Shown: piece after piece, positions 41,830 through 61,592 of the stretch
Numbering within the stretch: the stretch's first letter is position 1
Layout: every line of letters starts with the position of its first letter
Virus record (IMG/VR): IMGVR_UViG_3300045988_117041
Reading direction: 5' to 3' (one strand)
DNA: 64,000 bases
Source: a virus
The notes under the pieces: generated by a model
The model's input: only the letters and a program-made list of their open reading frames with translations
Told to the model about the DNA's origin: nothing
Databases searched by the model: none
Position numbers and translations under genes: made by a program

Positions 41830-42963
41830 ATGAAGTATATAAATGCGTCTGGCGGTGGTGGAGGTGGTACTGGTTCTGATGATGTGACAGCACTCAACAA
41901 ACACGTACTGGAACCGTACACAGCAGTAACAAAAGAGAGTGATGATGACCCCGCAAAAGGAACTATGAAGAATTTAGTAGACCGGGCCACAATAACGCAC
42001 ACATCAGATAATGCAACAAAGGTGTTGTTAGCAGATGAAGCCTATATAGCAGAAAACTCAGATGGTGTTAGACGTGTTGAGTTACGTTACAACGGTGATG
42101 AAGGTTTTATAAAGACTAACACATTAGTTGCATACCCAGAATCACAAGCAGGAGCAAAGTTTGGTATTACAGCAGACAAGATAGCAAACGGTCAAGTAGT
42201 GTTGGGAATGACCGGGACGTATAAAGGTTTAGGTAATGCTACAGCCGCACAAGTCCTTAGTGGTTATTCGTTTTCTTCTGCCGCTTTAAGTAATGCCTCT
42301 GGTTCTATGCCAGATAGAGGTGCATGGGGTGCGACACTTGCAATCAACGGCAGTGTTACAATACCTGCCGGGTATCACAATGGTTCTGGACGAATAACAC
42401 AAAGTATTGCCACAAAAGGAGCAACCACTATAACACCCATGTCTGCACAGCAGACAGCCGTAAGTGCTGGCACCTATTGTAGTGGCAATATAATCGTTGC
42501 TGGGAACGGCAACTTTGTAGCAGGAAACATTAAAAAGGGAGTAAACATCTGGGGTGTGGTAGGAACTTTTGAAGGTTGGGTACCTACACCACAGGACTGG
42601 TATTACAACGGTGTAAACACCTATGGAGTAGACTGTAATAGTACATACTTCCGATTTGAGAATACCCGCATATACTGTTTTTCTACTTCGTCTTCTAGGG
42701 TAAATAGTATCCAATTCAGAAGAGCCTACAACGTACAATCGTATTCAAGACTTAATTTTAATGGACATTTTATAAGTAACGCGGCGACTATTAGAGTAGA
42801 CTTAGAAGGAAGTAATATAGGCACCACAGTTACTAATGTACCAAATGGAGCGGGTTCTTTTAGTATTGATATATCACAGATATCCTCTTTTTCTGGTTCA
42901 GAAGCCCTATGGATACGTGACCTTAAAGGAGGTCTGTTCTTTAATAGAATATCACTATCTTAG
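41830..42963 (+). CDS. tail fibre protein with exchangeable C-terminus
   Basis: The ATG at 41830 follows gggagg. Has a Gly run near the N-terminus. Contains the left 26-bp inverted repeat at 42561-42586. Confidence 0.65.
   Translation: MKYINASGGGGGGTGSDDVTALNKHVLEPYTAVTKESDDDPAKGTMKNLVDRATITHTSDNATKVLLADEAYIAENSDGVRRVELRYNGDEGFIKTNTLVAYPESQAGAKFGITADKIANGQVVLGMTGTYKGLGNATAAQVLSGYSFSSAALSNASGSMPDRGAWGATLAINGSVTIPAGYHNGSGRITQSIATKGATTITPMSAQQTAVSAGTYCSGNIIVAGNGNFVAGNIKKGVNIWGVVGTFEGWVPTPQDWYYNGVNTYGVDCNSTYFRFENTRIYCFSTSSSRVNSIQFRRAYNVQSYSRLNFNGHFISNAATIRVDLEGSNIGTTVTNVPNGAGSFSIDISQISSFSGSEALWIRDLKGGLFFNRISLS
42561..42586 (+). repeat. IR-L, left 26-bp inverted repeat (putative recombination site)
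   Basis: aggaacttttgaaggttgggtaccta, encoding (V)GTFEGWVP(T). Confidence 0.95.
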
Positions 42964-42970
42964 ACCTTTG

Positions 42971-42993
42971 CTTTTGAAGGTTGTGGTATCCAT
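42971..42993 (+). repeat. third, degenerate copy of the repeat (direct relative to IR-L)
   Basis: cttttgaaggttg (13/13 identical to 42566-42578) followed by tggtatcca, where IR-L has ggtaccta. Lies 8 nt after the fibre stop codon. Confidence 0.7.
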
Positions 42994-43002
42994 TACGTAA
43001 GT

Positions 43003-43065
43003 GTTTATTAATTAATCTCCATCTGTGTTGGTATCTACCATGCAAGTGGAGATTAATTAATAAAC
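43003..43065. terminator. 19-bp perfect palindromic hairpin (bidirectional terminator candidate)
   Basis: gtttattaattaatctcca 43003-43021 pairs with tggagattaattaataaac 43047-43065, with a 25-nt loop. Confidence 0.6.
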
Positions 43066-43101
43066 GTCCATATTTTAATAACACACCCCAAAAGTTATAG
43101 G

Positions 43102-43548
43102 CTATTCTACATAGATGTGATAAATCATTAGTTGGTTATTTGGGGCATACCAATTTGAGACAATTAACTCAAAAATTGAGGTTTGATGAAATGCGGATAT
43201 ATCTGTAACTATAAAGGTATCATCTTTATTGATAACGAAGTTATTGTAGTTTGCTATCTCTACACCATTAAGTTTTTCAATAAAGTTAAATTTACCGATT
43301 GTGTCGGCGGACGTACATCTTGTCCTTATACAAAGTTTATTAAATGGAGAAAAATTAAATGCAGAACTTGCAGTTAATCTTACACCCGTTTTATACGGAA
43401 TATTTAGTAGGATACACCCACTCTCAAATGTCACACCTTGTCCGCTAGTTACGTGTAGACCTACTACGTTATTACCCATCTTGTATAAGTCCCAAGAGCT
43501 AGGTACCCAACCTTCAAAAGTTCCTGTAATAGGGACTAGAAATGTGAC
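43102..43548 (-). other. silent alternative tail-fibre C-terminal cassette, without promoter or start codon
   Basis: The minus-strand frame opens only 8 codons before the repeat. It reads VTFLVPITGTFEGWVPSSWDLYKMGNNVV... to the stop at 43102. No SD is present. It is the only minus-strand coding segment in the window. Confidence 0.65.
43500..43525 (-). repeat. IR-R, right 26-bp inverted repeat
   Basis: + strand taggtacccaaccttcaaaagttcct is the exact reverse complement of IR-L. Confidence 0.95.
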
Positions 43549-46423: not shown

Positions 46424-46447
46424 CCCGGTCTAACCCACCGGGTTTTT
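46424..46447 (+). terminator. rho-independent terminator
   Basis: cccggt 46424-46429 pairs with accggg 46437-46442, followed by TTTTT. Confidence 0.8.
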
Positions 46448-46508: not shown

Positions 46509-49157
46509 GTGTTAAAAGTAAAACCCGTAGGAAAAGAAAGACACTTATATTTATCAGAGTGCGCGACATTAACAAACCCCACCAAGAAAGAAGTAAAATC
46601 AATTAAATCGGCAACCACCTTTACGAATCCAGCATATGAGCGGGCAAAGAAATATACTCATTACACGTCCTATAAGATTCCCCAAACACTATGCTTTAGT
46701 AGTGTAGGTTATTTTAGAGGTGTTCCAGCTATCAGATTCCCTATAGGTCTTAGATTTGAGGTATCAGAAGACAGACCGATACATAAGGTCATAGACTACA
46801 GGGTGTTTGAAAAACCAAAACATAGACCGCCAGAGTTTAAATTAACTTTGCGGGAAGACCAAGAAAGAGCGTTGCTACAGTACGTGAGTATAAACGCATG
46901 GCAAGAAAAACAGCCTTGTGGTCTTGTACAGTTGCCGACCGGGAAAGGAAAGACTATATTATCTTTAGCGATAGTGAATGAGTTTAAGTTAAAGACGTTA
47001 GTCATAGTGCACACCAATGGTCTTGTTAAAGCCTGGACTGACGATATAAAGAAAGCCTTTGACGGTAAAGTTGTGCCGGGTCTTATAAAAGCTAAAAGCA
47101 AGACTGTAGGGGACTATATAACCATAGCAACCATACAGACGCTTAATAACATACCAGAGGACGAATTAGAGACCTTATTTGATACCTTTGGGCTTATTAT
47201 ACAGGACGAGTGCTTGGTTGGTGATACCTTAATCACCATGCAAGACGGTTCATATAAACCCATTAGAGACATTAAAAACGGGGATAAAGTTGCTGTAGGC
47301 GGCACCGTTAGTAATGTGTTTAGTAGGAAGTCTGAGATATACGAATTAGTATGTAGACATTCCACTATAAAAGGTAGTCCTACACACAAGACATGGTGTG
47401 TTAAAAAGAAAAACGATAAACACAATTACTATAGTAAGGAAGACCTTGTACTACTTCCTCTAAAAGACATAACCAAGGACTATTTAATACCTGTTAGGAT
47501 AGAAGAACCAATAAAGAAATCTAACACTTTAGGCAGTAATTTATGTGCTTTTATCGCACTCATAATCTGTAGTGGACACATAGATAAAAAAAGTAATCGG
47601 GTTGTTGTAAATGTATCAAAAAACACTGACTTCTATAGAAGTGTATTTGAAGAAGGGTGTAAGTGTTTTGGTGTTACTGCAAGTACCAGTTATGATTGCC
47701 GAGGAAACTTAAGAATGTGGACAAACAACGTAGATATAAGATATTTTCTTGAAACCACTATGAATATAAACAAAGGTAAAAAGAACAATGTTGTTAGTGT
47801 CCCACGCTGGATACTTAATGCGTCAAACACAGAGGTTAAATCATTTATAGAAACGTGTTTTAACTGTAGCGGTGATTTACAGGAAAACAAAGCAATGCAC
47901 TTTAACTGCGCGTCACAATCGTTTTCTATGGGACTTGTGTTATTACTTAAAAGGTTTGGTGTATTAAGCACTATTCACTGTGTTAATAAACGTAAAGGTG
48001 TTAAAATTCAATACCGTGTTACTGTAGGAGGTAAGAACTTTAATAAGTTTATGGACACATTTAATCTGCTGTCCTATAAAATGACCGATAGCAGAAATAC
48101 AGGTAAACACACGTTCAATAACAGATATGCGGGTAACTACTTTCTTAGTGATGTAGTAAGTTGTAAGTCTTTAGGTTACACAGAGGACGTATATGATTTC
48201 ACTGTGAGTAAAGATAACCATAGTTTTATAGCAAATGGCGTTCTAACTCATAATTGCCATCACTGCCCTAGTACAAGCTATGAGTTAGTGAATAGGTTCA
48301 GAGCCACCTATAGATTAGGTCTCACAGCAACACCAGAAAGAAATGACGGTCTCACATTCTTAATGACTTTATATTTTGGCGGGTTCTGTTATGAGTACAA
48401 CAAAGAGTTGCAAAAAGACCAGAAGAAAGACAAAGACATTTTACCATTTGAGGTGATACACCGGGCCATGAAATATTCTTTCACACCTATGCTACGTCCT
48501 GTAGGTCAGAGAGGGTATAAAGTATTGCCGTTTAATTATCCCGTGAATAAATATGGCCCGGAAGATATACCTATTGATTCCATACCTTATAGAGACAGAC
48601 CGAAAGTAAAGTACAACGAGGTATCAGACCTCGTGATGTTAGATGAAAATAATATTAAACAGGTGTTACATGATGTATATACAGAAGGTGTTATCAATAA
48701 CCGTAGCTGTGTGGTGTTTTTTACCAGTCGTGTGCACTGTGAACACTATTTCCAGAAGTTCAAAGAAATGGTGACACACACTACTAGGTATACGTCCGGG
48801 AATACAAAGTTTAGTAATATAGCACAGTTATACACAGGTGCTACCAAAGATGATGAAACATGTTTAAAACGTGCAATAAACCGGGAAGTAATAATTACCT
48901 TTACCACCTTTGGTAAAAGCACAGAAGGGACTAATATACCGTGTTTAGAAGTAGCGTTTTTAGTTACTTCCATTAATGACGGTAAGAACACCGAACAGGC
49001 CATAGGACGTATTCGCCGTAAGTGTGACACATACCATAAATTAGGGCGCGTAAGAGTGTATGACTATGACTATAACAAAGTGTATATGTTGAGGTCTCAT
49101 TACAGAACACGTCTTGAAAGGTATAAGACCTTGAAAGGTAGAATCATTGATGTATAA
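46509..49157 (+). CDS. SF2 DExH-box DNA helicase, interrupted by an intein
   Basis: GTG at 46509 after agaggtga. Motif I LPTGKGKT, motif II split as IIQDE|intein|CHH, motif III LTATPER, motif VI QAIGRIRR. Confidence 0.85.
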   Translation: MLKVKPVGKERHLYLSECATLTNPTKKEVKSIKSATTFTNPAYERAKKYTHYTSYKIPQTLCFSSVGYFRGVPAIRFPIGLRFEVSEDRPIHKVIDYRVFEKPKHRPPEFKLTLREDQERALLQYVSINAWQEKQPCGLVQLPTGKGKTILSLAIVNEFKLKTLVIVHTNGLVKAWTDDIKKAFDGKVVPGLIKAKSKTVGDYITIATIQTLNNIPEDELETLFDTFGLIIQDECLVGDTLITMQDGSYKPIRDIKNGDKVAVGGTVSNVFSRKSEIYELVCRHSTIKGSPTHKTWCVKKKNDKHNYYSKEDLVLLPLKDITKDYLIPVRIEEPIKKSNTLGSNLCAFIALIICSGHIDKKSNRVVVNVSKNTDFYRSVFEEGCKCFGVTASTSYDCRGNLRMWTNNVDIRYFLETTMNINKGKKNNVVSVPRWILNASNTEVKSFIETCFNCSGDLQENKAMHFNCASQSFSMGLVLLLKRFGVLSTIHCVNKRKGVKIQYRVTVGGKNFNKFMDTFNLLSYKMTDSRNTGKHTFNNRYAGNYFLSDVVSCKSLGYTEDVYDFTVSKDNHSFIANGVLTHNCHHCPSTSYELVNRFRATYRLGLTATPERNDGLTFLMTLYFGGFCYEYNKELQKDQKKDKDILPFEVIHRAMKYSFTPMLRPVGQRGYKVLPFNYPVNKYGPEDIPIDSIPYRDRPKVKYNEVSDLVMLDENNIKQVLHDVYTEGVINNRSCVVFFTSRVHCEHYFQKFKEMVTHTTRYTSGNTKFSNIAQLYTGATKDDETCLKRAINREVIITFTTFGKSTEGTNIPCLEVAFLVTSINDGKNTEQAIGRIRRKCDTYHKLGRVRVYDYDYNKVYMLRSHYRTRLERYKTLKGRIIDV
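47211..48254 (+). mobile_element. intein (348 aa) with LAGLIDADG-type homing endonuclease domain, in helicase motif II
   Basis: Starts CLVGDTLITM. Block B is SPTHKTW. LAGLIDADG-like segments are FIALIICSGHID and FIETCFNCSGDL. Ends FIANGVLTHN followed by Cys+1. The joined exteins read DECH. Confidence 0.85.
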
Positions 49158-50081: not shown

Positions 50082-50540
50082 ATGAAATTTAAAGAAGCAT
50101 ATAGACTTATGAGAGAAGACAAGAAAGTGAAGTTGCCTAGCTGGTCTGGATTTTGGTGTTGGGATAAAAACAAAGAAAGTATTATCATGCACACTAAAGA
50201 AGGAGAAGTGTTAGACATACGAGACACCAAGAACGTAGGGTATACACTTACGAATATCTTTAGTGATGAATGGGAAGAAGCAACACCAATAAACACCCCG
50301 CTGATTGGCGGTTCATTAGCAATGTCATTTGAAACGGCATTAATGTTAATGAAGTGTAAGAAACGTCCTATGAGAAGAAACACCTGGGAAGACGGGACGT
50401 ATATTATTACATGGGACAGTGCAGAAGGACCGAGACTTAAAAAGACTACGGATAAATCATGTAGCTTTAAAGTATATACACCAACACAAGAAGATATGTT
50501 CACAGATGATTGGACATATTTTGTACACAAGGAGGACTAA
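50082..50540 (+). CDS. tandem DUF2829-domain protein (family that includes Tad2)
   Basis: Two copies of the DUF2829 pattern: MKFKEAYRLMREDKKVKLPSW...IFSDEWEEA and MSFETALMLMKCKKRPMRRNTW...MFTDDWTYF. Confidence 0.6.
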   Translation: MKFKEAYRLMREDKKVKLPSWSGFWCWDKNKESIIMHTKEGEVLDIRDTKNVGYTLTNIFSDEWEEATPINTPLIGGSLAMSFETALMLMKCKKRPMRRNTWEDGTYIITWDSAEGPRLKKTTDKSCSFKVYTPTQEDMFTDDWTYFVHKED

Positions 50541-50543
50541 ACA

Positions 50544-50864
50544 ATGAAAGTACCTGTTAAGAAAAAGACTGAGGATAAGGTGAAGAAAAGCATTAAGCAA
50601 TTAAATGCACCAAACCTTACACCAGAGGAAACAGAAGCACTTGAAGATATGTTACAGGAGACAGAACCCAGTGAGGTTCCTATTGACCGTCTTAATAAAG
50701 TGGTCGAGTTTGTGTTTAACCGTTTCAATCTGCAAGACAAGGACTATCAAATTGATTCTTATGCAGAGAAGAATGGTAAGGTGAAATTGAGTGTTAGTAA
50801 TCCGCAGTACACCGTGGCTGTTACAATCAATGACCGGGAAGAACACCCAGAACTTATGTATTAA
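50544..50864 (+). CDS. hypothetical protein (106 aa)
   Basis: SD aaggagga. Tightly packed against neighbouring genes. Confidence 0.55.
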   Translation: MKVPVKKKTEDKVKKSIKQLNAPNLTPEETEALEDMLQETEPSEVPIDRLNKVVEFVFNRFNLQDKDYQIDSYAEKNGKVKLSVSNPQYTVAVTINDREEHPELMY

Positions 50865-50879
50865 CAAAGGGGAATACGC

Positions 50880-51053
50880 ATGGCTGTAAAAGTGATTGAG
50901 TATGGCAGAAGAAGGATACGTTGTCCAGAGTGTCTTTCTATGCTAGAGTTTGAAAAGAACGATATAAAAACAGTGCAAACAGGAATGAACGAGTACGAAA
51001 AGGTGATTGAGTGCCCTAACTGTGAAGCACAAATAGTAGTGAAGGAGCGTTGA
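50880..51053 (+). CDS. small zinc-ribbon protein (57 aa, below the ORF-track cutoff)
   Basis: ATG after aaagggga. Contains CPEC...CPNC. Confidence 0.5.
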   Translation: MAVKVIEYGRRRIRCPECLSMLEFEKNDIKTVQTGMNEYEKVIECPNCEAQIVVKER

Positions 51054-51055
51054 AA

Positions 51056-51397
51056 GTGAAAAGAAAGTTAAGCAACCCACAGTTAAGAACACAGACACAG
51101 AAGAATGTAAGAAAAGGTAACACCACCGTAACCAGAAAGCGTGACGGTATAGAAGATTTAATAGAAAAAGGTGCTGTAGCAGAACTTCCTATTAAGAGAC
51201 AGTCCAACACAGAACCACTTGTCGGTATGAGTAAGGGTATCACCAAGAATATGCAGAACTATGAAAGCCTGCGACTGGACGTGTGGTATAGTGATGTTGT
51301 CAGAAAAGGTGAAACACCACAAGACGCATTACAGCGTGTAGAAGCGGTTATAGATACCGTCCTTGAAAACACTGTAGCGTACTATCTGGACGATTGA
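51056..51397 (+). CDS. hypothetical basic protein
   Basis: GTG at 51056 lies 8 nt after aaggag. The track start TTG 51050 is too close to the SD. Confidence 0.55.
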   Translation: MKRKLSNPQLRTQTQKNVRKGNTTVTRKRDGIEDLIEKGAVAELPIKRQSNTEPLVGMSKGITKNMQNYESLRLDVWYSDVVRKGETPQDALQRVEAVIDTVLENTVAYYLDD

Positions 51398-53794: not shown

Positions 53795-55132
53795 TTGAGT
53801 GACAAGAACCTAGATAAACTCAATGTCGAGCGGGGGCTTATATCAAAGCTGATAGAGACACGGGACATTGAGACCATAACTACATTAGATATAGACACCA
53901 GATTCTTTACCGGGGAACACAGACGGGTGTTCAGTTACATAACAAAGTTTGTGTTAGAGAATGGCGAGGTGCCAACGCCCCGTGTTGTAAAGAAGAACTT
54001 CCCAAACTACATCATTGAACGATATTACAATGACGACCGGGGAGAAAAGATTTACGGTACAGCAGAACCACTTGACTATTGGTGTTCAGAAATACGCCGA
54101 AAGTTGAAACACAACACCCTTGCAGAAATGATAGAAAAAGCGGGTGAGACACTAGGCGAATTTGATACTGAGGAAGCCTATAGCCAGATTAAGAAAGCTA
54201 TTTCTTACGTTGACAGCGAAGTAGAGATAACTAAGTCGGTAGACATTACAGACGGCACTGATAAGCGAAAAGAACTGTATGAGAAGAAAAAGTTAAACCA
54301 CGGTATTGTAGGTCTTGAAACGGGTATACTTCCGTTAGACAGAATATTAAGAGGTCTTCCAGATGAAACACTGACTATGATAATAGCCACGACCGGAGTG
54401 GGCAAGACCTTCATGCAAGTTCTGATTGGTGCTTACCTTGCGTTAGAGGGTTACAAAGTACAACACTTTATCACTGAAATGTCTGACGGTCTAATGAGAG
54501 ACAGGTATGAAATGATGTTATACTCAATGACTGTGGGACACATAAGCTATAAACAGTTTAAAGAAGGTAAACTTCCGTTTAAGCAGGAGAAGTCTTATTA
54601 TGAATTTTTAGACGAGATACTACCAGACATAACCCCGGTGATTCTTACACCTGCAAAGGGTGTTCTTGCAATGAGAGCAGACATAGAGAAAGAGAAACCA
54701 GACCTTGTTATGATTGATGGTGTTTACCTCATGCAAGACGACCAGGGAGCAAAAGATGACTGGTTAAGAGTAGCGCACATTACCCGTGATTTAAAGACCG
54801 CCAGTAAAGATTTACACCTACCATTTTTAGGTAACACGCAAGCAAGTCAAGCTACATCAAAGAAGACCGGGCCAGGACTTGATTCTATCATGTATACACA
54901 AGCCATAGGTCAAGACTGTGATAACATCATAGCCTTATGGCGTGATGAAGTGATGTATAACGAGAAAGAAATGGGTGTTAAAGTATTAAAACAAAGAGAA
55001 GGTGAACAAGGACAATTTATAATGACCTGGGACTTTGATACAATGACCTTTAAGCCTATTTACAGTGTAGACCAAGACGGTAACTCCAATCCAGAAGAAG
55101 ATGAAGACGCAGAAGACGCTTTACTGGATTAA
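53795..55132 (+). CDS. dnaB: replicative DNA helicase, DnaB family
   Basis: N-terminal ERGLISKLIE...FFTGEHRRVF, Walker A ATTGVGKT, Walker B LVMIDGVYLM, and the QASQ motif. Confidence 0.85.
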   Translation: MSDKNLDKLNVERGLISKLIETRDIETITTLDIDTRFFTGEHRRVFSYITKFVLENGEVPTPRVVKKNFPNYIIERYYNDDRGEKIYGTAEPLDYWCSEIRRKLKHNTLAEMIEKAGETLGEFDTEEAYSQIKKAISYVDSEVEITKSVDITDGTDKRKELYEKKKLNHGIVGLETGILPLDRILRGLPDETLTMIIATTGVGKTFMQVLIGAYLALEGYKVQHFITEMSDGLMRDRYEMMLYSMTVGHISYKQFKEGKLPFKQEKSYYEFLDEILPDITPVILTPAKGVLAMRADIEKEKPDLVMIDGVYLMQDDQGAKDDWLRVAHITRDLKTASKDLHLPFLGNTQASQATSKKTGPGLDSIMYTQAIGQDCDNIIALWRDEVMYNEKEMGVKVLKQREGEQGQFIMTWDFDTMTFKPIYSVDQDGNSNPEEDEDAEDALLD

Positions 55133-58313: not shown

Positions 58314-61300
58314 ATGAAAGACGAAAGACTTAGAATGATGAAGCCCGTGGTCTACAGTCCGTTCTATTCCAAGTGGTATCCGTTAAGACCACGAATAGAG
58401 AAATACACCATTGTAGACACCATTCCAAAACTTAGGAAGTTGGCGAAAAAAGCAAAGACAAAAACTGAATTTGCTTTTGATACAGAGACCAACGGGTTAA
58501 GAGCATACGGGCCAGACAAGAATTTCAGATGTGTGTGTATCACAATAAGCTGGGGGCCTAGAGATAACTACTATATCCCGCTTGCACACTTGCGTGACGA
58601 GGACATAGATAGAAACCTTGATTTAAGTGTTGCACGTCCTCTATTAAATAAGATATTGGGCCGCAAAGACGTAAGACTAATAGGACATAACATAAAATTT
58701 GATATGCACGTATTAGCGCGTATTGGCGTTTATGTAAAGACAAGAGACTTATTCGACACAATGGTAGGTGTTTGGCTATGTGATGAAAACACACCTAACG
58801 GTTTGAAAGAATCTTCAAAGATTAAGATGGATATAGACCAGACCCATTTTGCAGACGCAGTGGCTACAGTTCCAAAAGAAGTTAAAAAGCGTTTTGGTCT
58901 TAAGCCTAACAGTAAAGCCACGTATGACCTTGTGCTGATAGACGAAGGTGCACCATACGCGTTAGATGATAGTTACTTTACCTGGGAACTGTACTTAGGT
59001 TTGTTAGAAGAACTTGAACATGAAGAAATGGATAAGATTTTCTACAAACACTATATGCCGTTCATATGGACACTGTATCATATGGAAGAACGAGGTATCA
59101 CCGTTGATGTAGACAAGCTGAGACACATGGGTGTTGATATGGACAAAGACCTTGAAGACCTCATGTATCAGATGGTAGAGATTGCGGGTATACAGTTTAA
59201 TCCGTCTTCACAGCAGTTAGGTGAATTATTGTTTGGTTATGTTAAAGAAGACAAGCTGAACGAAAAGACAGGTAAGATAACCAAAGCAAACCCAAACTGG
59301 GACATTATCAAGCGTTCCTTTAAGTTCCGTATCATAAGCACCACACCAAAAGGTGCACCACAAGTTAATAATGACGTATTGTGGAAATTGTCGCGCTTAG
59401 AGTATAAAAAGAGTAAGCGCAAACAGCAAGGTGTAGAATTTGTAAAGCTGTTAATGTCCTACAACAAAATCAAAAAGTTAAAGAGTGCTTTTGTTGACGG
59501 TCTGTTAGACCAGATATATGATGATGGGAAAGCACACCCTTCCTATAACATCATAGGGACAGACACGGGACGTTTAAGCTGTACAAGCCCTAACCTACAG
59601 CAGTTGCCGAAAGCAGAGGAAGAAGACCAGTACCAGATTAGAAGTGTGTTTATCGGTAGTTTAGATAAGTCCACAGGTAAACGTAAAAAGTTAATCGCGT
59701 GTGACTATGCTAACCTGGAAATGCGTGTTCTTGCGCATTTTTGCGTTCAACGCAATATGCCTATTGCACTTGAAGACGGTTCAAGTATTGAGATGGGGAG
59801 TTTAGTGCAGAAATGTGATAATAGTAGAAAAGTTAAATCATATAATTTTGATACCGGGAAGATAGAAGCACAGCCAATAACAAATTTCTGGAAGAATGGT
59901 AAGTCAAATTTATATGACACACCACAATATCGAGGTACTCATGATGATTGGTTGAGAATAGTAAATGACGGAGACTATAGTAGACTTGTTGTTACTGACG
60001 ACCATGAGATATTTACACCTCGTGGTAAAGTACGTGCAAAGAATTTACATGAAGGTGATACCATGTACTACAATGCCCCGGAATTTAGTGATGATTTAAA
60101 AGAACTTGTCGTGGGTATTACACTAGGTGATTCAAACTTTAAAGACAAGTGGTCTGGTCTTGTGTTCTATCATGCTGACAGTCAACGTGAGTATTTAGAT
60201 TGGAAGAAGTCTTTATTAAAAGACTATGTTGGCGAAGTTTTTGAAGACACTACAGTTAATAAGATATATTTAAAAGCTAACCCCTTTATACTCAAACTCA
60301 AAGAGTGTTACACACAAGGTAAAGACAATTCCCATAAGTTAATTAATGTAGATATAGTTAAACATATGAGTGTTAAGTCTTTAGCTGTATGGTATTTAGA
60401 TGACGGGTGTTTTAGCCACGATGATAGGTGTTGTAGTATGAGCGGATACAGTCTAACTATTGCTAGAAAGAATATATCCCTTGATGTAGTTAAGGCTTTA
60501 AATGATAAGTTTAATTTTAATTTCAGACTTACTTCTACAGGTATTAGTTTATCAGGAAGTTATTTTAATAAGTTTTTAAGGGCTATAGCACCTTATTGCC
60601 CCAAGTGCATGAACTATAAGTTTCCTCACTTCTTAAAAGACCTAGTAGGTACTTATATCTGGAACACTGCACATCGTGATGTTACAGAAGTTAAGATTGT
60701 GAGTATAGAGAGAGTGCAGAAAGGGGACCCGTTATTTAAAAAGTCATTGATACAGTCTGGGTATGACTTAGAAGTGTTCGGTAACCATAACTACTTTGCC
60801 AACAACATACTTGTGTCCAATAGTAAAGACAAGAATTTGATAGATATGTTCTTGTCCGGGGCAGATACACATGGTGCCACTGCTGTTAATATGTTCAATC
60901 TTGACTGTGAACCGAATGAGGTAAAGAAGAAGTATCACCATTTGAGACAAGCCGCGAAAATCATTAACTTTATGTTGATGTACGGTGGTGGTAGATTCAG
61001 ACTGTATACTGCGCTTAGAGACGACCAGTCCTCACCCATTGATTTAGGTAGTGAAGAATATGTCACCTTGTACGCTAAACAGATAGCAGAGTTTAAGCGT
61101 AATTTCCGGGGACGTAAAGTACCTAGTGACGGGGAGATAGTAGCACAGATTTACATTGACCGCTACTTTGATTCATACAAAGGTGTTGCAGAGTTCATAA
61201 AGAGAGAAAAACGTTATGCACATAGACACGGATATGTGTACACATTAAAACGCCGTAAAAGACGCATACCAGATATTAACAGTGATAATTTTGGTACTGT

Positions 61301-61592
61301 AGGGTACTGTGAGCGTGTTAGTGTCAATGCACCTATCCAGGGTAGTGCGGCAGACATAACGTCCAGTGCACAGAATCGTGTTGACCTTGACGATTTCTTT
61401 ATAGAACACGGTGCACTGTTATTACTCCAAGTGCATGATGAACTTGTCATGGAATGTCCAGAAGAACACGTAGAGGTAGTCACTAAACGTCTGCAAGAGT
61501 TAATGGCACACCCATTCGGTGATAACATTGAACTGAACCTACCCCTTAGAGCAGACGCAGATTCAGGGGATTCCTACCAGGATGCCAAGTAA
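58314..61592 (+). CDS. polA: DNA polymerase I (family A, with 3'-5' exonuclease), interrupted by an intein
   Basis: Exo I FAFDTETNGL, Exo II GHNIKFD, Exo III YALDDSY. Motif A CDYANLEMRVLAHF|intein|SKDKNLIDMF. Motif B RQAAKIINFMLMYGG. Motif C QVHDEL. Confidence 0.9.
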   Translation: MKDERLRMMKPVVYSPFYSKWYPLRPRIEKYTIVDTIPKLRKLAKKAKTKTEFAFDTETNGLRAYGPDKNFRCVCITISWGPRDNYYIPLAHLRDEDIDRNLDLSVARPLLNKILGRKDVRLIGHNIKFDMHVLARIGVYVKTRDLFDTMVGVWLCDENTPNGLKESSKIKMDIDQTHFADAVATVPKEVKKRFGLKPNSKATYDLVLIDEGAPYALDDSYFTWELYLGLLEELEHEEMDKIFYKHYMPFIWTLYHMEERGITVDVDKLRHMGVDMDKDLEDLMYQMVEIAGIQFNPSSQQLGELLFGYVKEDKLNEKTGKITKANPNWDIIKRSFKFRIISTTPKGAPQVNNDVLWKLSRLEYKKSKRKQQGVEFVKLLMSYNKIKKLKSAFVDGLLDQIYDDGKAHPSYNIIGTDTGRLSCTSPNLQQLPKAEEEDQYQIRSVFIGSLDKSTGKRKKLIACDYANLEMRVLAHFCVQRNMPIALEDGSSIEMGSLVQKCDNSRKVKSYNFDTGKIEAQPITNFWKNGKSNLYDTPQYRGTHDDWLRIVNDGDYSRLVVTDDHEIFTPRGKVRAKNLHEGDTMYYNAPEFSDDLKELVVGITLGDSNFKDKWSGLVFYHADSQREYLDWKKSLLKDYVGEVFEDTTVNKIYLKANPFILKLKECYTQGKDNSHKLINVDIVKHMSVKSLAVWYLDDGCFSHDDRCCSMSGYSLTIARKNISLDVVKALNDKFNFNFRLTSTGISLSGSYFNKFLRAIAPYCPKCMNYKFPHFLKDLVGTYIWNTAHRDVTEVKIVSIERVQKGDPLFKKSLIQSGYDLEVFGNHNYFANNILVSNSKDKNLIDMFLSGADTHGATAVNMFNLDCEPNEVKKKYHHLRQAAKIINFMLMYGGGRFRLYTALRDDQSSPIDLGSEEYVTLYAKQIAEFKRNFRGRKVPSDGEIVAQIYIDRYFDSYKGVAEFIKREKRYAHRHGYVYTLKRRKRRIPDINSDNFGTVGYCERVSVNAPIQGSAADITSSAQNRVDLDDFFIEHGALLLLQVHDELVMECPEEHVEVVTKRLQELMAHPFGDNIELNLPLRADADSGDSYQDAK
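59742..60821 (+). mobile_element. intein (360 aa) with LAGLIDADG homing endonuclease, 10 residues after the Pol I motif A Asp
   Basis: Starts with Cys (CVQRNMPIAL). Block B is VTDDHEIF. LAGLIDADG motifs are LVVGITLGDSNF and LAVWYLDDGCF. Ends YFANNILVSN followed by Ser+1. Confidence 0.85.

Follow-up and report, generated by a model that had tools for sequence, protein, structure and literature searches.

The helicase gene and the insert in its motif II

The window, i.e., the whole 64,000-nt stretch of viral DNA that was analysed, comes from a tailed phage of roughly 80–84 kb, probably a member of an uncultured gut lineage of Firmicutes-type phages. Its helicase gene had no megablast match among GenBank phages, so the phage is without a close cultured relative, and the best protein-level match of the helicase was that of Bacillus phage BCD7 (31.6%). 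The gene spans 46509..49157 (all features described here are on the + strand) and encodes a precursor that has 882 aa with the intein and would have 534 aa once spliced. Translation likely starts at the GTG at 46509, which has an AGGTGA Shine-Dalgarno sequence upstream and is the identical start called in both an intein-free contig, L001, and the sister phage L002; the TTG at 46446, where the mechanical ORF begins, was rejected as a start because this codon is within the T-run of an upstream terminator hairpin.

The N-extein (46509..47210) carries motif I, TGKGKT (46938–46955), and ends with ...GLIIQDE, whose final Asp-Glu belongs to motif II (Walker B). The C-extein (48255..49157) starts with Cys+1 in CHHCPSTSY, completing DE-C-H, and carries motif III, LTATPER (48321–48341), and motif VI, QAIGRIRR (48996–49019). 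The SF2 helicase motifs I (GKT), II (DExH), III (TAT) and VI (QxxGRxxR) are all intact, and in the alignment of the helicase family (A1) the residues T165, K167, G168, K169, D254, E255 and H605 are invariant. The protein scored 86.6 bits against Pfam ResIII (cutoff 22.5) and its spliced sequence matched PHROG 16, “DNA helicase” (phrog_16), at 2.9e-57; it is an SF2, ResIII/XPB-like phage helicase of the replication/repair type. In the comparison with the sister phage, the exteins had a dN/dS of 0.015, with a single non-synonymous change in 1602 nt, and are under very strong purifying selection. Because of this selection, and with motifs I, II, III and VI intact, the helicase is taken to be working.

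Between the Glu and the Cys of DE-C-H lies a class 1 intein of 348 aa (47211..48254), extending from Cys1 to Asn348. The initial annotation had given this insert as starting with CLVGDTLITM and ending ...VLTHN, with ...GLIIQDE before it and CHHCPSTSY after it, and the translation (CLVGDTLITM...FIANGVLTHN) agrees with it to the base. Insert and exteins form a single ORF without interruption. A 92% identical but intein-free helicase of 535 aa, P0002, reads QDE/CHHCPSTSY (slashes mark the insertion site or a splice junction), missing exactly the residues C1–N348; aligned with such intein-free homologues, the window helicase shows a gap exactly at DE/C, at both junctions, and is not collinear with them through this region. 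At the DNA level, the allele of P0002 on L001 reads ...ATACAAGACGAG/TGCCATCATTGCCCT... and that of the window ...ATACAGGACGAG/(intein)/TGCCATCACTGCCCT..., and their codon alignment has its gap exactly at 47211..48254. The BLAST alignment with L001 breaks at window positions 47213/48255, 1–2 nt off the junctions, because both sides start with TGC. The placement of the insertion within the catalytic motif II was likewise borne out, D254, E255 and H605 being among the invariant residues of the family.

The insert had also been described, by eye, as rich in AT and Lys. Its GC content is indeed 34.6%, compared with 39.2% and 38.5% in the exteins and 41.4% in the window, so that it ranks within the bottom 0.24% of the 1044-nt windows and is the lowest-GC stretch of the 64,000 nt; the enrichment in Lys was not found (9.8% in the insert vs. 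9.4%), and the enriched residue is Asn (9.2% vs. 4.3%). Two other identities for the insert were considered and rejected. A group I intron or a free-standing homing-endonuclease gene would not account for a continuous frame with no stop, no internal start signal and intein junction residues. A native, lineage-specific helicase domain is contradicted by the absence of any insert at the site in 114 of the closest 120 helicase clusters listed, from which it follows that the insert is not a domain of the helicase family, and by homologous inserts in unrelated ATPases.

Splicing residues, family and fold of the intein

The canonical hallmarks of class 1 inteins are all present, both those that the initial annotation had claimed (Cys1, block B, the terminal Asn and Cys+1) and the other residues of blocks F and G. 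Block A, CLVGDTLITMQD (47211..47246), begins with Cys1, the N-terminal splicing nucleophile, which was found in 44/44 aligned inteins and in all 16 variants of the phage population. Block B had been read as a TxxH block in SPTHKTW; its His stands (H59, 44/44 inteins) but its Thr does not, the core S56-P-T-H59 (47376..47387) being an SxxH variant; of the 44 inteins, 23 share this Ser and 21 have Thr instead. Blocks F and G, VYDFTVSKDNHSFIANGVLTHN (48189..48254), contain D329, H337, the penultimate H347 and the terminal N348, and across the aligned inteins D329 is invariant, N348 is found in 44/44 and H347 in 38/44. All of the splicing residues and C+1 are invariant in the 16 variants of the phage lineage, and in these the reading frame is open over 882 codons.

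The HMM search of the insert gave matches to both Hint and LAGLIDADG domains. TIGR01443 (intein_Cterm) was passed with 29–32 bits against a cutoff of 15.6, whereas Pfam Intein_splicing, at 34.7 bits, and the N-terminal region TIGR01445, at 16.5 bits, remained below their curated cutoffs of 35.8 and 24.5; the insert also matched the HMMs of intein-containing RtcB, radical SAM, VMA and RNR proteins. An exhaustive HMMER search retrieved 393 relatives of the intein, 24 of them at E<=1e-30, and most of these relatives are located at hhhDE/C...THN/CHH in helicases. With the intein as the sole query, a word-index protein search returned no matches, though the protein P0001 is 94% identical there, and this is taken as a limitation of the tool. 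In P0001, a second, P-loop intein proposed by a regular expression (“GKGK^ intein 191 aa starts TILSLA”) was dismissed as a false positive.

An AlphaFold2 model of the intein was obtained with a pLDDT of 94 and a pTM of 0.92, and Foldseek matched it first to full-size inteins exclusively, with 7qsu (TliVMA) at the top, followed by PI-SceI, the PhoVMA intein and PI-PfuI; model and matches together establish the Hint fold. The same group of VMA-type inteins, represented by TliVMA (7qss/7qsu), PhoVMA (7qst), PI-SceI (1vde, 1lws) and PI-PfuI (1dq3), also includes the best PDB match by sequence (TliVMA intein, phmmer, 4.9e-7), and the fold matches range from 6.9e-23 to 1e-13 with a TM of ~0.55–0.67. 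As in the window, these inteins have a Hint domain interrupted by a LAGLIDADG endonuclease and are inserted in a P-loop NTPase; however, host protein (V-ATPase subunit A or ribonucleotide reductase) and site are different, identity is 14–20%, and the window intein, at 348 aa vs. 360–540 aa, is without the extra DNA-recognition region. The exact gap relative to the 92% identical homologue, the significant HMM and PDB matches and the fold similarity (E=7e-23) confirm, far beyond chance, that the insert is a class 1 full-size (Hint plus LAGLIDADG) intein.

The insertion site is one that is already known to be occupied. A helicase intein is found in the Nitunavirus Bacillus phages BSP10, BSP15, BSP18, BSP21, phiNIT1, SIOphi and SPG24, where the gene is annotated as “intein containing DNA helicase” (MH707432.1 BSP15_090), and that of BSP10 is mentioned in Viruses 2018;10:240 (PMC5977233). 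It shares with the window intein the DE/CHH site in motif II of an SF2 helicase (...VMIADE/CLVEGS...GALTHN/CHHSKADTW), homology across the full 348 aa at 32–34% identity, the class 1 residues and the Hint plus LAGLIDADG architecture. The Nitunavirus host helicase, in contrast, is distinct and much larger (1391 aa), belongs to a myovirus of ~150 kb, and has a second, upstream intein ending ...VNHN/T. Inteins have further been described in TerL1-e and a HepA-related helicase of mycobacteriophages (PMC5050341) and in PolIII gamma, MCM, Ski2, HepA/Snf2, UvrD and RecG (PMC4760082). As far as the accessible text of these two articles goes, these inteins, too, occupy the catalytic motifs that are best conserved in ATPases of replication and repair, Walker B among them, and their hosts include SF2 helicases and genes of phages; but the host families are other ones, as apparently are the intein lineages, and no description of the DE/CHH site of ResIII/XPB-like phage helicases was found there.

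The endonuclease domain and the history of the intein

Inserted in the Hint fold is the LAGLIDADG homing-endonuclease domain (aa 99–290, 47505..48080), which scored 32.3 bits against Pfam LAGLIDADG_3 (cutoff 22.5), aligns with the endonuclease domain of the TliVMA intein (7qss/7qsu) and was matched by Foldseek to I-DmoI with a TMt of 0.7. The two LAGLIDADG-like segments that had been pointed out in the translation correspond to long helices in the AlphaFold2 model, H109–121 and H206–220, each followed by beta strands, in the two-helix alpha-beta-beta-alpha-beta-beta-alpha arrangement of a pseudo-dimer. Helix 1, SNLCAFIALIICSGH (aa 109–123, 47535..47579), has S121 at the position of the catalytic Asp, and helix 2, NTEVKSFIETCFNCSGD (aa 206–222, 47826..47876), has S220 at that of the catalytic Glu/Asp. 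Both serines are the last residues of their respective helices in the model, and they align with the D of ...LIADG and of ...IVCDG in 7qss; the catalytic Asp/Glu is thus absent from the C-terminal ends of both helices of the window intein. Among the 44 aligned inteins, Asp is found at position 121 in 36, and position 220 is occupied by Glu in 35 and by Asp in 2; in the population, all 16 variants have S121 and 15 have S220, the remaining one carrying Arg there. The Nitunavirus endonuclease retains D-G (LVMADGHLD) and E-G (FSCEGDIS), while S-G stands at both places in the window copy. D222, which is beside S220 and is also conserved where relatives have retained the Glu, is a conceivable substitute ligand.

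In known LAGLIDADG enzymes, mutants of these acids (I-CreI D20, PI-SceI D218/D326, I-DmoI D21/E117) lose cleavage, and PI-SceI and PI-PfuI, which have both acids, are active as nucleases. With both of its catalytic acids replaced by Ser, the homing endonuclease is probably catalytically inactive, while splicing would have been kept. The endonuclease domain is also more variable than any other part of the protein: 12% of its columns vary among the 16 variants, compared with 5.8% for Hint and 3.6% for the exteins. Both acids are retained in 36 of the 44 aligned inteins, lost in seven (including the window intein), and in one a single acid is missing, as would be predicted if loss of the first acid lifts the constraint on the second.

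The alternative is a fully active mobile intein that splices and whose LAGLIDADG domain cuts intein-free alleles, with homing between co-infecting phages. The domain is full in length and fold, and its evolution is not neutral: in the comparison with L002, dN/dS was 0.17 for the endonuclease domain and 0.06 for the Hint parts. A dN/dS of 0.17 is compatible with selection for a fold that permits splicing, and just as well with an activity that persists or a function newly acquired. Potential targets exist as well, since an intein-free DECHH allele is carried by a related phage (the L001 type, 87–89% nucleotide identity) and by ~20% of the family clusters listed; the empty site of L001, ATTATACAAGACGAG/TGCCATCATTGCCCTAGT, also written ...GGTCTTATTATACAAGACGAG/TGCCATCATTGCCCTAGTACAAGT..., is the candidate target of the nuclease. 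The Cys in the x position of DExH in P0002 may be read as the footprint of a precise loss of the intein; DECHH, however, was found in 23–24 of the 114 intein-free clusters among those listed, so this Cys is a common polymorphism.

The divergence of the intein from the sister phage is also of the kind that homing with co-conversion leaves behind. The intein forms an island of 4–7% divergence from L002 over a local background of 1–2%; on average it differs by 5.6% of its nucleotides, compared with 0.9–1.3% in the exteins (Fisher p=4e-11), dS is 0.21 vs. 0.05, and the raised divergence spills ~300 nt into the C-extein, where it is 3%, vs. <1% beyond. Relaxed selection as the sole cause is not sufficient, as the synonymous divergence is raised fourfold too, and we read the island and the low GC content as a foreign or mobile history of the intein. 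The synonymous divergence suggests that intein alleles may still be exchanged, which is a little awkward with a nuclease that would already have been dead in the common ancestor of L002 and the window phage. Against an active nuclease stand the Ser at both metal-binding positions, the distribution of the two acids among the aligned inteins and the S220R of one population variant, a further step from an acid, and we consider continued homing unlikely.

Proposed splicing, retention and meaning

We regard it as very probable that a canonical class 1 splicing intein occupies the DE-C-H box of the helicase, with a nuclease that is most likely dead, and that it has become fixed post-homing. If the helicase is functional, the intein must come out, and the splicing residues point to an autocatalytic reaction, which can be modelled on the standard class 1 pathway. 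The 882-aa precursor would be unable to hydrolyse ATP, because 348 residues split its motif II. An N-S acyl shift at Cys1, aided by S56/H59 of block B, would produce a thioester, and this would be attacked by Cys+1 (trans-thioesterification). Cyclisation of Asn348, aided by H347, H337 and D329, would then release the intein, and an S-N shift would remake the peptide bond to give the 534-aa helicase, ...IIQDECHHCP..., with the predicted junction peptide ...LIIQDECHHCPSTSYELVNR (...LIIQDE-CHHCPSTSYELVNR). The intein would now spread only passively, via phage–phage recombination, and its persistence would be explained by the damage that an imprecise deletion would do to an essential motif.

A different reason for its retention might be that the intein has been exapted as a conditional-splicing switch, i.e., that splicing gates the activity of the helicase during infection, e.g., in response to redox state or Zn2+, which would affect Cys1, Cys+1 and the C+1-H-H-C+4 motif; the dead LAGLIDADG domain might then bind DNA, as that of WhiA does. 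WhiA is a free-standing, DNA-binding transcription factor with a LAGLIDADG fold that lacks the catalytic acids. WhiA/DUF199 (3hyi, 8dy7) appeared among the structural matches found by Foldseek, and like the window domain it is without the metal-binding Asp/Glu, though it is not part of an intein. An insertion within the catalytic motif means that the precursor must be inactive, the C-extein starts with the CxxC-like CHHC, and the endonuclease domain, dead as it may be, remains under constraint (dN/dS 0.17). A stress-responsive intein in a helicase has a precedent in DnaB of M. smegmatis, according to the accessible part of PMC6195587. CHHCP, however, belongs to the consensus of the helicase family with or without an intein, and the intein is dispensable, as only ~4% of the family clusters listed carry any intein and none is present in the 92% identical phage helicase. 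Such a switch appears distinctly unlikely, and very unlikely in its most specific form, in which the constrained dead LAGLIDADG domain and Cys1/Cys+1-H-H-Cys+4 would make activation of the helicase conditional on redox, Zn2+ or DNA binding, and the dS island would reflect the exchange of functional intein alleles. That the insertion does not splice at all, being a decayed intein or a bacterial-intein-like domain, a helicase pseudogene or a lineage-specific helicase domain, would agree with the Pfam Intein_splicing and TIGR01445 scores below their curated thresholds, but is extremely improbable in view of intact and invariant splicing residues, the low extein dN/dS, the frame that is open in all 16 variants and the clusters listed that are missing the insert.

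For annotation, the gene should be taken as one helicase (534 aa when mature) plus an intein, and not as a protein of ~900 aa or a helicase–endonuclease fusion. The current understanding of inteins is unchanged, the DE/CHH site being already occupied in annotated Bacillus phages. Inteins with presence/absence polymorphism were noted in this phage group in the helicase and Pol A of the window phage and in DnaB of the sister phage. What the locus offers is a textbook example, and a clean one, of the life cycle of an intein: a full-size intein has become fixed in a replication helicase, at its most strongly conserved motif, the splicing residues are frozen, both acids of the homing nuclease are lost, and the empty site survives in a closely related phage. 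With several polymorphic inteins, the phage group is a usable natural system in which the gain, decay and loss of inteins can be followed.

An intein inside motif II of a phage helicase

Overall, the window is the genome of a tailed phage, with genes for structure and packaging (large terminase, SPP1-type portal and capsid protein) and for replication (ATP-dependent DNA ligase, DnaB-type helicase, DnaG-type primase and family A DNA polymerase). The SF2 helicase, in which motifs I (TGKGKT), III (LTATPER) and VI (QAIGRIRR) are all intact, lies in a long plus-strand ORF called mechanically from a TTG at 46446 to a stop at 49157 (903 codons); in related contigs, which are 80–84 kb long, a holin gene is found shortly upstream of it. 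The true start is very probably GTG 46509, because an AGGTGA Shine–Dalgarno sequence stands a few bases upstream and the same start was called by gene callers on both related contigs, and TTG 46446 is disfavored because it falls within the T-run of a GC-rich terminator hairpin. With this start, a precursor of 882 aa would give a spliced product of 534 aa.

The initial annotation had proposed a class 1 intein of 348 aa at 47211–48254 (+), and the translation agrees exactly, running from CLVGDTLITM to FIANGVLTHN, with ...GLIIQDE before and CHHCPSTSY after it. With the conceptually spliced helicase as query, 269 homologues were found, among them P0001 (882 aa, 98–99% identical to the window protein, a cluster of 153 sequences) and P0002 (535 aa, 92% identical), which is without the insert. 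The suggested alignment to an intein-free homologue was made with P0002, which reads ...FGLIIQDE/CHHCPSTSYELV... (slashes mark junctions), with a gap from Cys1 through Asn348 of the insert. In DNA comparisons with L001, the contig of P0002 (87–89% identity), the BLAST alignment is interrupted within 1–2 nt of both junctions, the gap in the codon alignment falls at exactly 47211 and 48254, and the empty site reads ATTATACAAGACGAG/TGCCATCATTGCCCTAGT. Since D254, E255 and the His that follows the insert do not vary across the family alignment, the insertion point is placed inside motif II.

Among the 120 best helicase clusters, the DE/C position is empty in 114 and holds a homologous insert in three (P0001, P0054 and P0104); P0098 has a homologous insert three codons downstream, and P0100 an unrelated one in the P-loop. 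The latter (341 aa, GKGK/AQPLYTEIL...FIVTHN/TVLGL) begins with Ala instead of Cys or Ser, has Cys at the usual block F Asp (..CQCIMV..) and Thr at the fifth block G position, a signature of class 3 inteins, to which it may belong. Of the 114 intein-free clusters, 76 have Met directly behind DE (x of DExH, 48255–48257), 23 have Cys, 7 Ala and 5 Val, so that about one-fifth of the empty alleles already offer the Cys+1 nucleophile that the intein requires; this Cys may be a pre-adaptation or the footprint of earlier occupancy.

The proposed search for Hint (splicing) and LAGLIDADG (homing endonuclease) domains gave matches above cutoff for Pfam LAGLIDADG_3 (32.3 bits, cutoff 22.5) and the NCBIfam C-terminal intein region TIGR01443 (29–32 bits, cutoff 15.6); Pfam Intein_splicing (34.7 bits) fell slightly below its cutoff of 35.8 and the N-terminal region TIGR01445 (16.5) below 24.5, and there were partial matches to many NCBIfam models of intein-containing proteins. 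Searched exhaustively with HMMER, 1.8 billion representatives yielded 393 relatives at E<=1e-3, of which 24 reached E<=1e-30; the full-length ones are inteins embedded in other proteins and share the termini of the window's (C...[T/S][H/S]N). When 44 inteins were aligned (the window's, four from helicase homologues and 39 representatives), Cys1, the block B His59 and Asn348 were present in all 44, the block F Asp329 was invariant and His347 was kept in 38. Block B, given as TxxH in the initial annotation, is SxxH here: the window has Ser56, and of the 44 inteins 23 carry Ser and 21 Thr at this position. By sequence, the closest solved structure is the Thermococcus litoralis VMA intein (7qss/7qsu, E=4.9e-7). 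The AlphaFold2 model, built from 39 sequences (mean pLDDT 94, pTM 0.92), has as its best PDB matches full-size homing-endonuclease inteins only, namely TliVMA (6.9e-23), then PI-SceI, PhoVMA, PI-PfuI and the 2cw7 intein, followed by free-standing LAGLIDADG enzymes such as I-DmoI. Every criterion that could be computed, from the exact gap and the relatives to conserved residues, predicted fold and HMMs, speaks for the class 1 reading, though of the splicing-domain HMMs only the C-terminal one exceeds its cutoff.

Splicing and the state of the endonuclease

Comparison with the sister phage contig L002 showed 17 synonymous and one non-synonymous change in the exteins (dN/dS 0.015), so the helicase is under strong purifying selection, and a helicase with 348 residues inside DE-x-H cannot work. 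The Hint parts have a dN/dS of 0.06, and in 16 variants of the lineage, each 882 aa long, Cys1, Ser56, His59, Asp329, His337, His347, Asn348 and Cys+1 never vary. Together, this is strong indirect evidence, drawn from sequence comparison, that the intein still splices.

In LAGLIDADG enzymes, the final residue of each LAGLIDADG helix is a metal-binding Asp or Glu (I-CreI D20, PI-SceI D218/D326, I-DmoI D21/E117). The window intein has Ser121 (...LIICSGH...) and Ser220 (...FNCSGD...) at these positions; their aligned counterparts in 7qss are the Asp residues of its two xDG motifs, and in the AlphaFold2 model they terminate helices 109–121 and 206–220. Of the 44 aligned inteins, 36 have Asp at position 121, and at position 220 there are 35 with Glu and two with Asp; both acids are kept in 36 and both lost in seven (including the window, P0001 and P0054), with a single loss in only one. 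All 16 population variants have S121, and 15 of them also have S220, the remaining one carrying Arg there. The endonuclease domain is also the most variable part of the protein, with 12% variable columns among these variants versus 5.8% in Hint and 3.6% in the exteins. The homing endonuclease is therefore probably dead, as far as sequence and model can tell. Counter to simple decay, however, its domain still has a dN/dS of 0.17 versus L002, a constraint that we read as selection to keep the insert well folded and harmless to splicing; it may instead reflect a residual or new function of the domain.

A probable separate history of the intein, and mosaicism in the phage group

The insert had been described as AT-rich by eye, and its GC content is indeed 34.6%; the exteins have 39% and the whole window 41.4%. 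Just one other stretch of the 64 kb has a GC content as low, and it too is an intein, at 59742–60821 (+), 360 aa, inside the family A polymerase (Pol A) ORF 58314–61592. Its junctions, ...EMRVLAHF/CVQRNMPI...ANNILVSN/SKDKNLIDMF, lie just past motif A; it has Cys1, a penultimate Ser, a terminal Asn and Ser+1, and scores 34.2 bits with Intein_splicing and 58 bits with LAGLIDADG_2.

Relative to L002, the helicase intein has diverged at 5.6% of its bases and the exteins at 0.9% and 1.3% (Fisher p=4e-11), and the excess is synonymous too (dS 0.21 versus 0.05). In 300-nt windows, divergence is 1–2% in the local background, 4–7% in the intein and 3% in the 300 nt that open the C-extein. These differences suggest an older common ancestor for the two phages' intein alleles than for the gene around them, and hence recombinational exchange, perhaps accompanied by co-conversion of a short tract. 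Since both copies share the Ser/Ser nuclease, such exchange would be passive or driven in trans.

L002 is 96% identical to the window over a 10.7-kb stretch spanning the DnaB gene. The DnaB-type helicase of the window (53795–55132 (+), 445 aa) is intein-free, whereas the DnaB_C protein of L002 (12281–12649 and beyond) has 789 aa with Hom_end/LAGLIDADG_3 matches; within a single phage lineage a third intein thus shows presence/absence polymorphism. A mosaic patch at 50100–51300 (+), 11–22% divergent from the sister phage versus a 1–2% background, starts in ORF 50082–50540 with a Tad2-like (Thoeris anti-defence) domain (41.8 bits, cutoff 25), so this anti-defence gene is located at a recombination hot spot. 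The segment at about 42560–43525, upstream of the lysis genes, is 98.8% identical to L002 on the opposite strand, an inversion of ~1 kb.

Walker B sites and the inteins of Bacillus phages

Most full-length relatives of the intein are located at hhhDE/C..N/CHH of ResIII/XPB-like helicases, and some at DE/C of XPD-like (DEAD_2) helicases and AAA ATPases. Clear relatives (E about 1e-23 to 1e-40) stand at the Walker B hhhDE/C of P0133 and P0155 (AAA ATPases) and P0144 and P0148 (XPD-like DEAD_2); a Pfam scan covered P0133 and P0144, and P0155 and P0148 were assigned by similar junction sequences. A single intein lineage has colonised functionally equivalent Walker B sites across unrelated P-loop ATPase families. 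The inteins of P0098, P0123 and P0124, 38–42% identical to the window's, occupy DExHH/C...THN/CP, three codons downstream of DE/C...THN/CHHCP, and are nested in a neighbour-joining tree within the clade of DE/CHH inteins from the same helicase family, which suggests that the insertion site has moved by 9 nt inside motif II and not that these helicases were invaded independently.

A tblastn search of deposited phage genomes matched 19 Bacillus phage records, nearly all ~150 kb, including BSP10, BSP15, BSP18, BSP21, phiNIT1, SIOphi and SPG24, with 32–34% identity across all 348 residues; several are annotated 'intein containing DNA helicase'. The BSP15 (Nitunavirus) intein uses the same DE/CHH site (...VMIADE/CLVEGS...GALTHN/CHHSKADTW) and, unlike the window intein with its Ser/Ser, keeps both catalytic acids. 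The BSP10 helicase intein is mentioned in the genome paper of that phage (PMC5977233), and two surveys (PMC4760082, PMC5050341) already describe inteins in Walker B motifs, SF2 helicases (Ski2, HepA/Snf2) and phage helicases. The window element thus adds a divergent member to an intein allele family that was already known, in a helicase lineage that is new as its host. The most useful additions are the probable inactivation of the nuclease, the sister allele with its empty site and the polymorphism of the phage group for several inteins.
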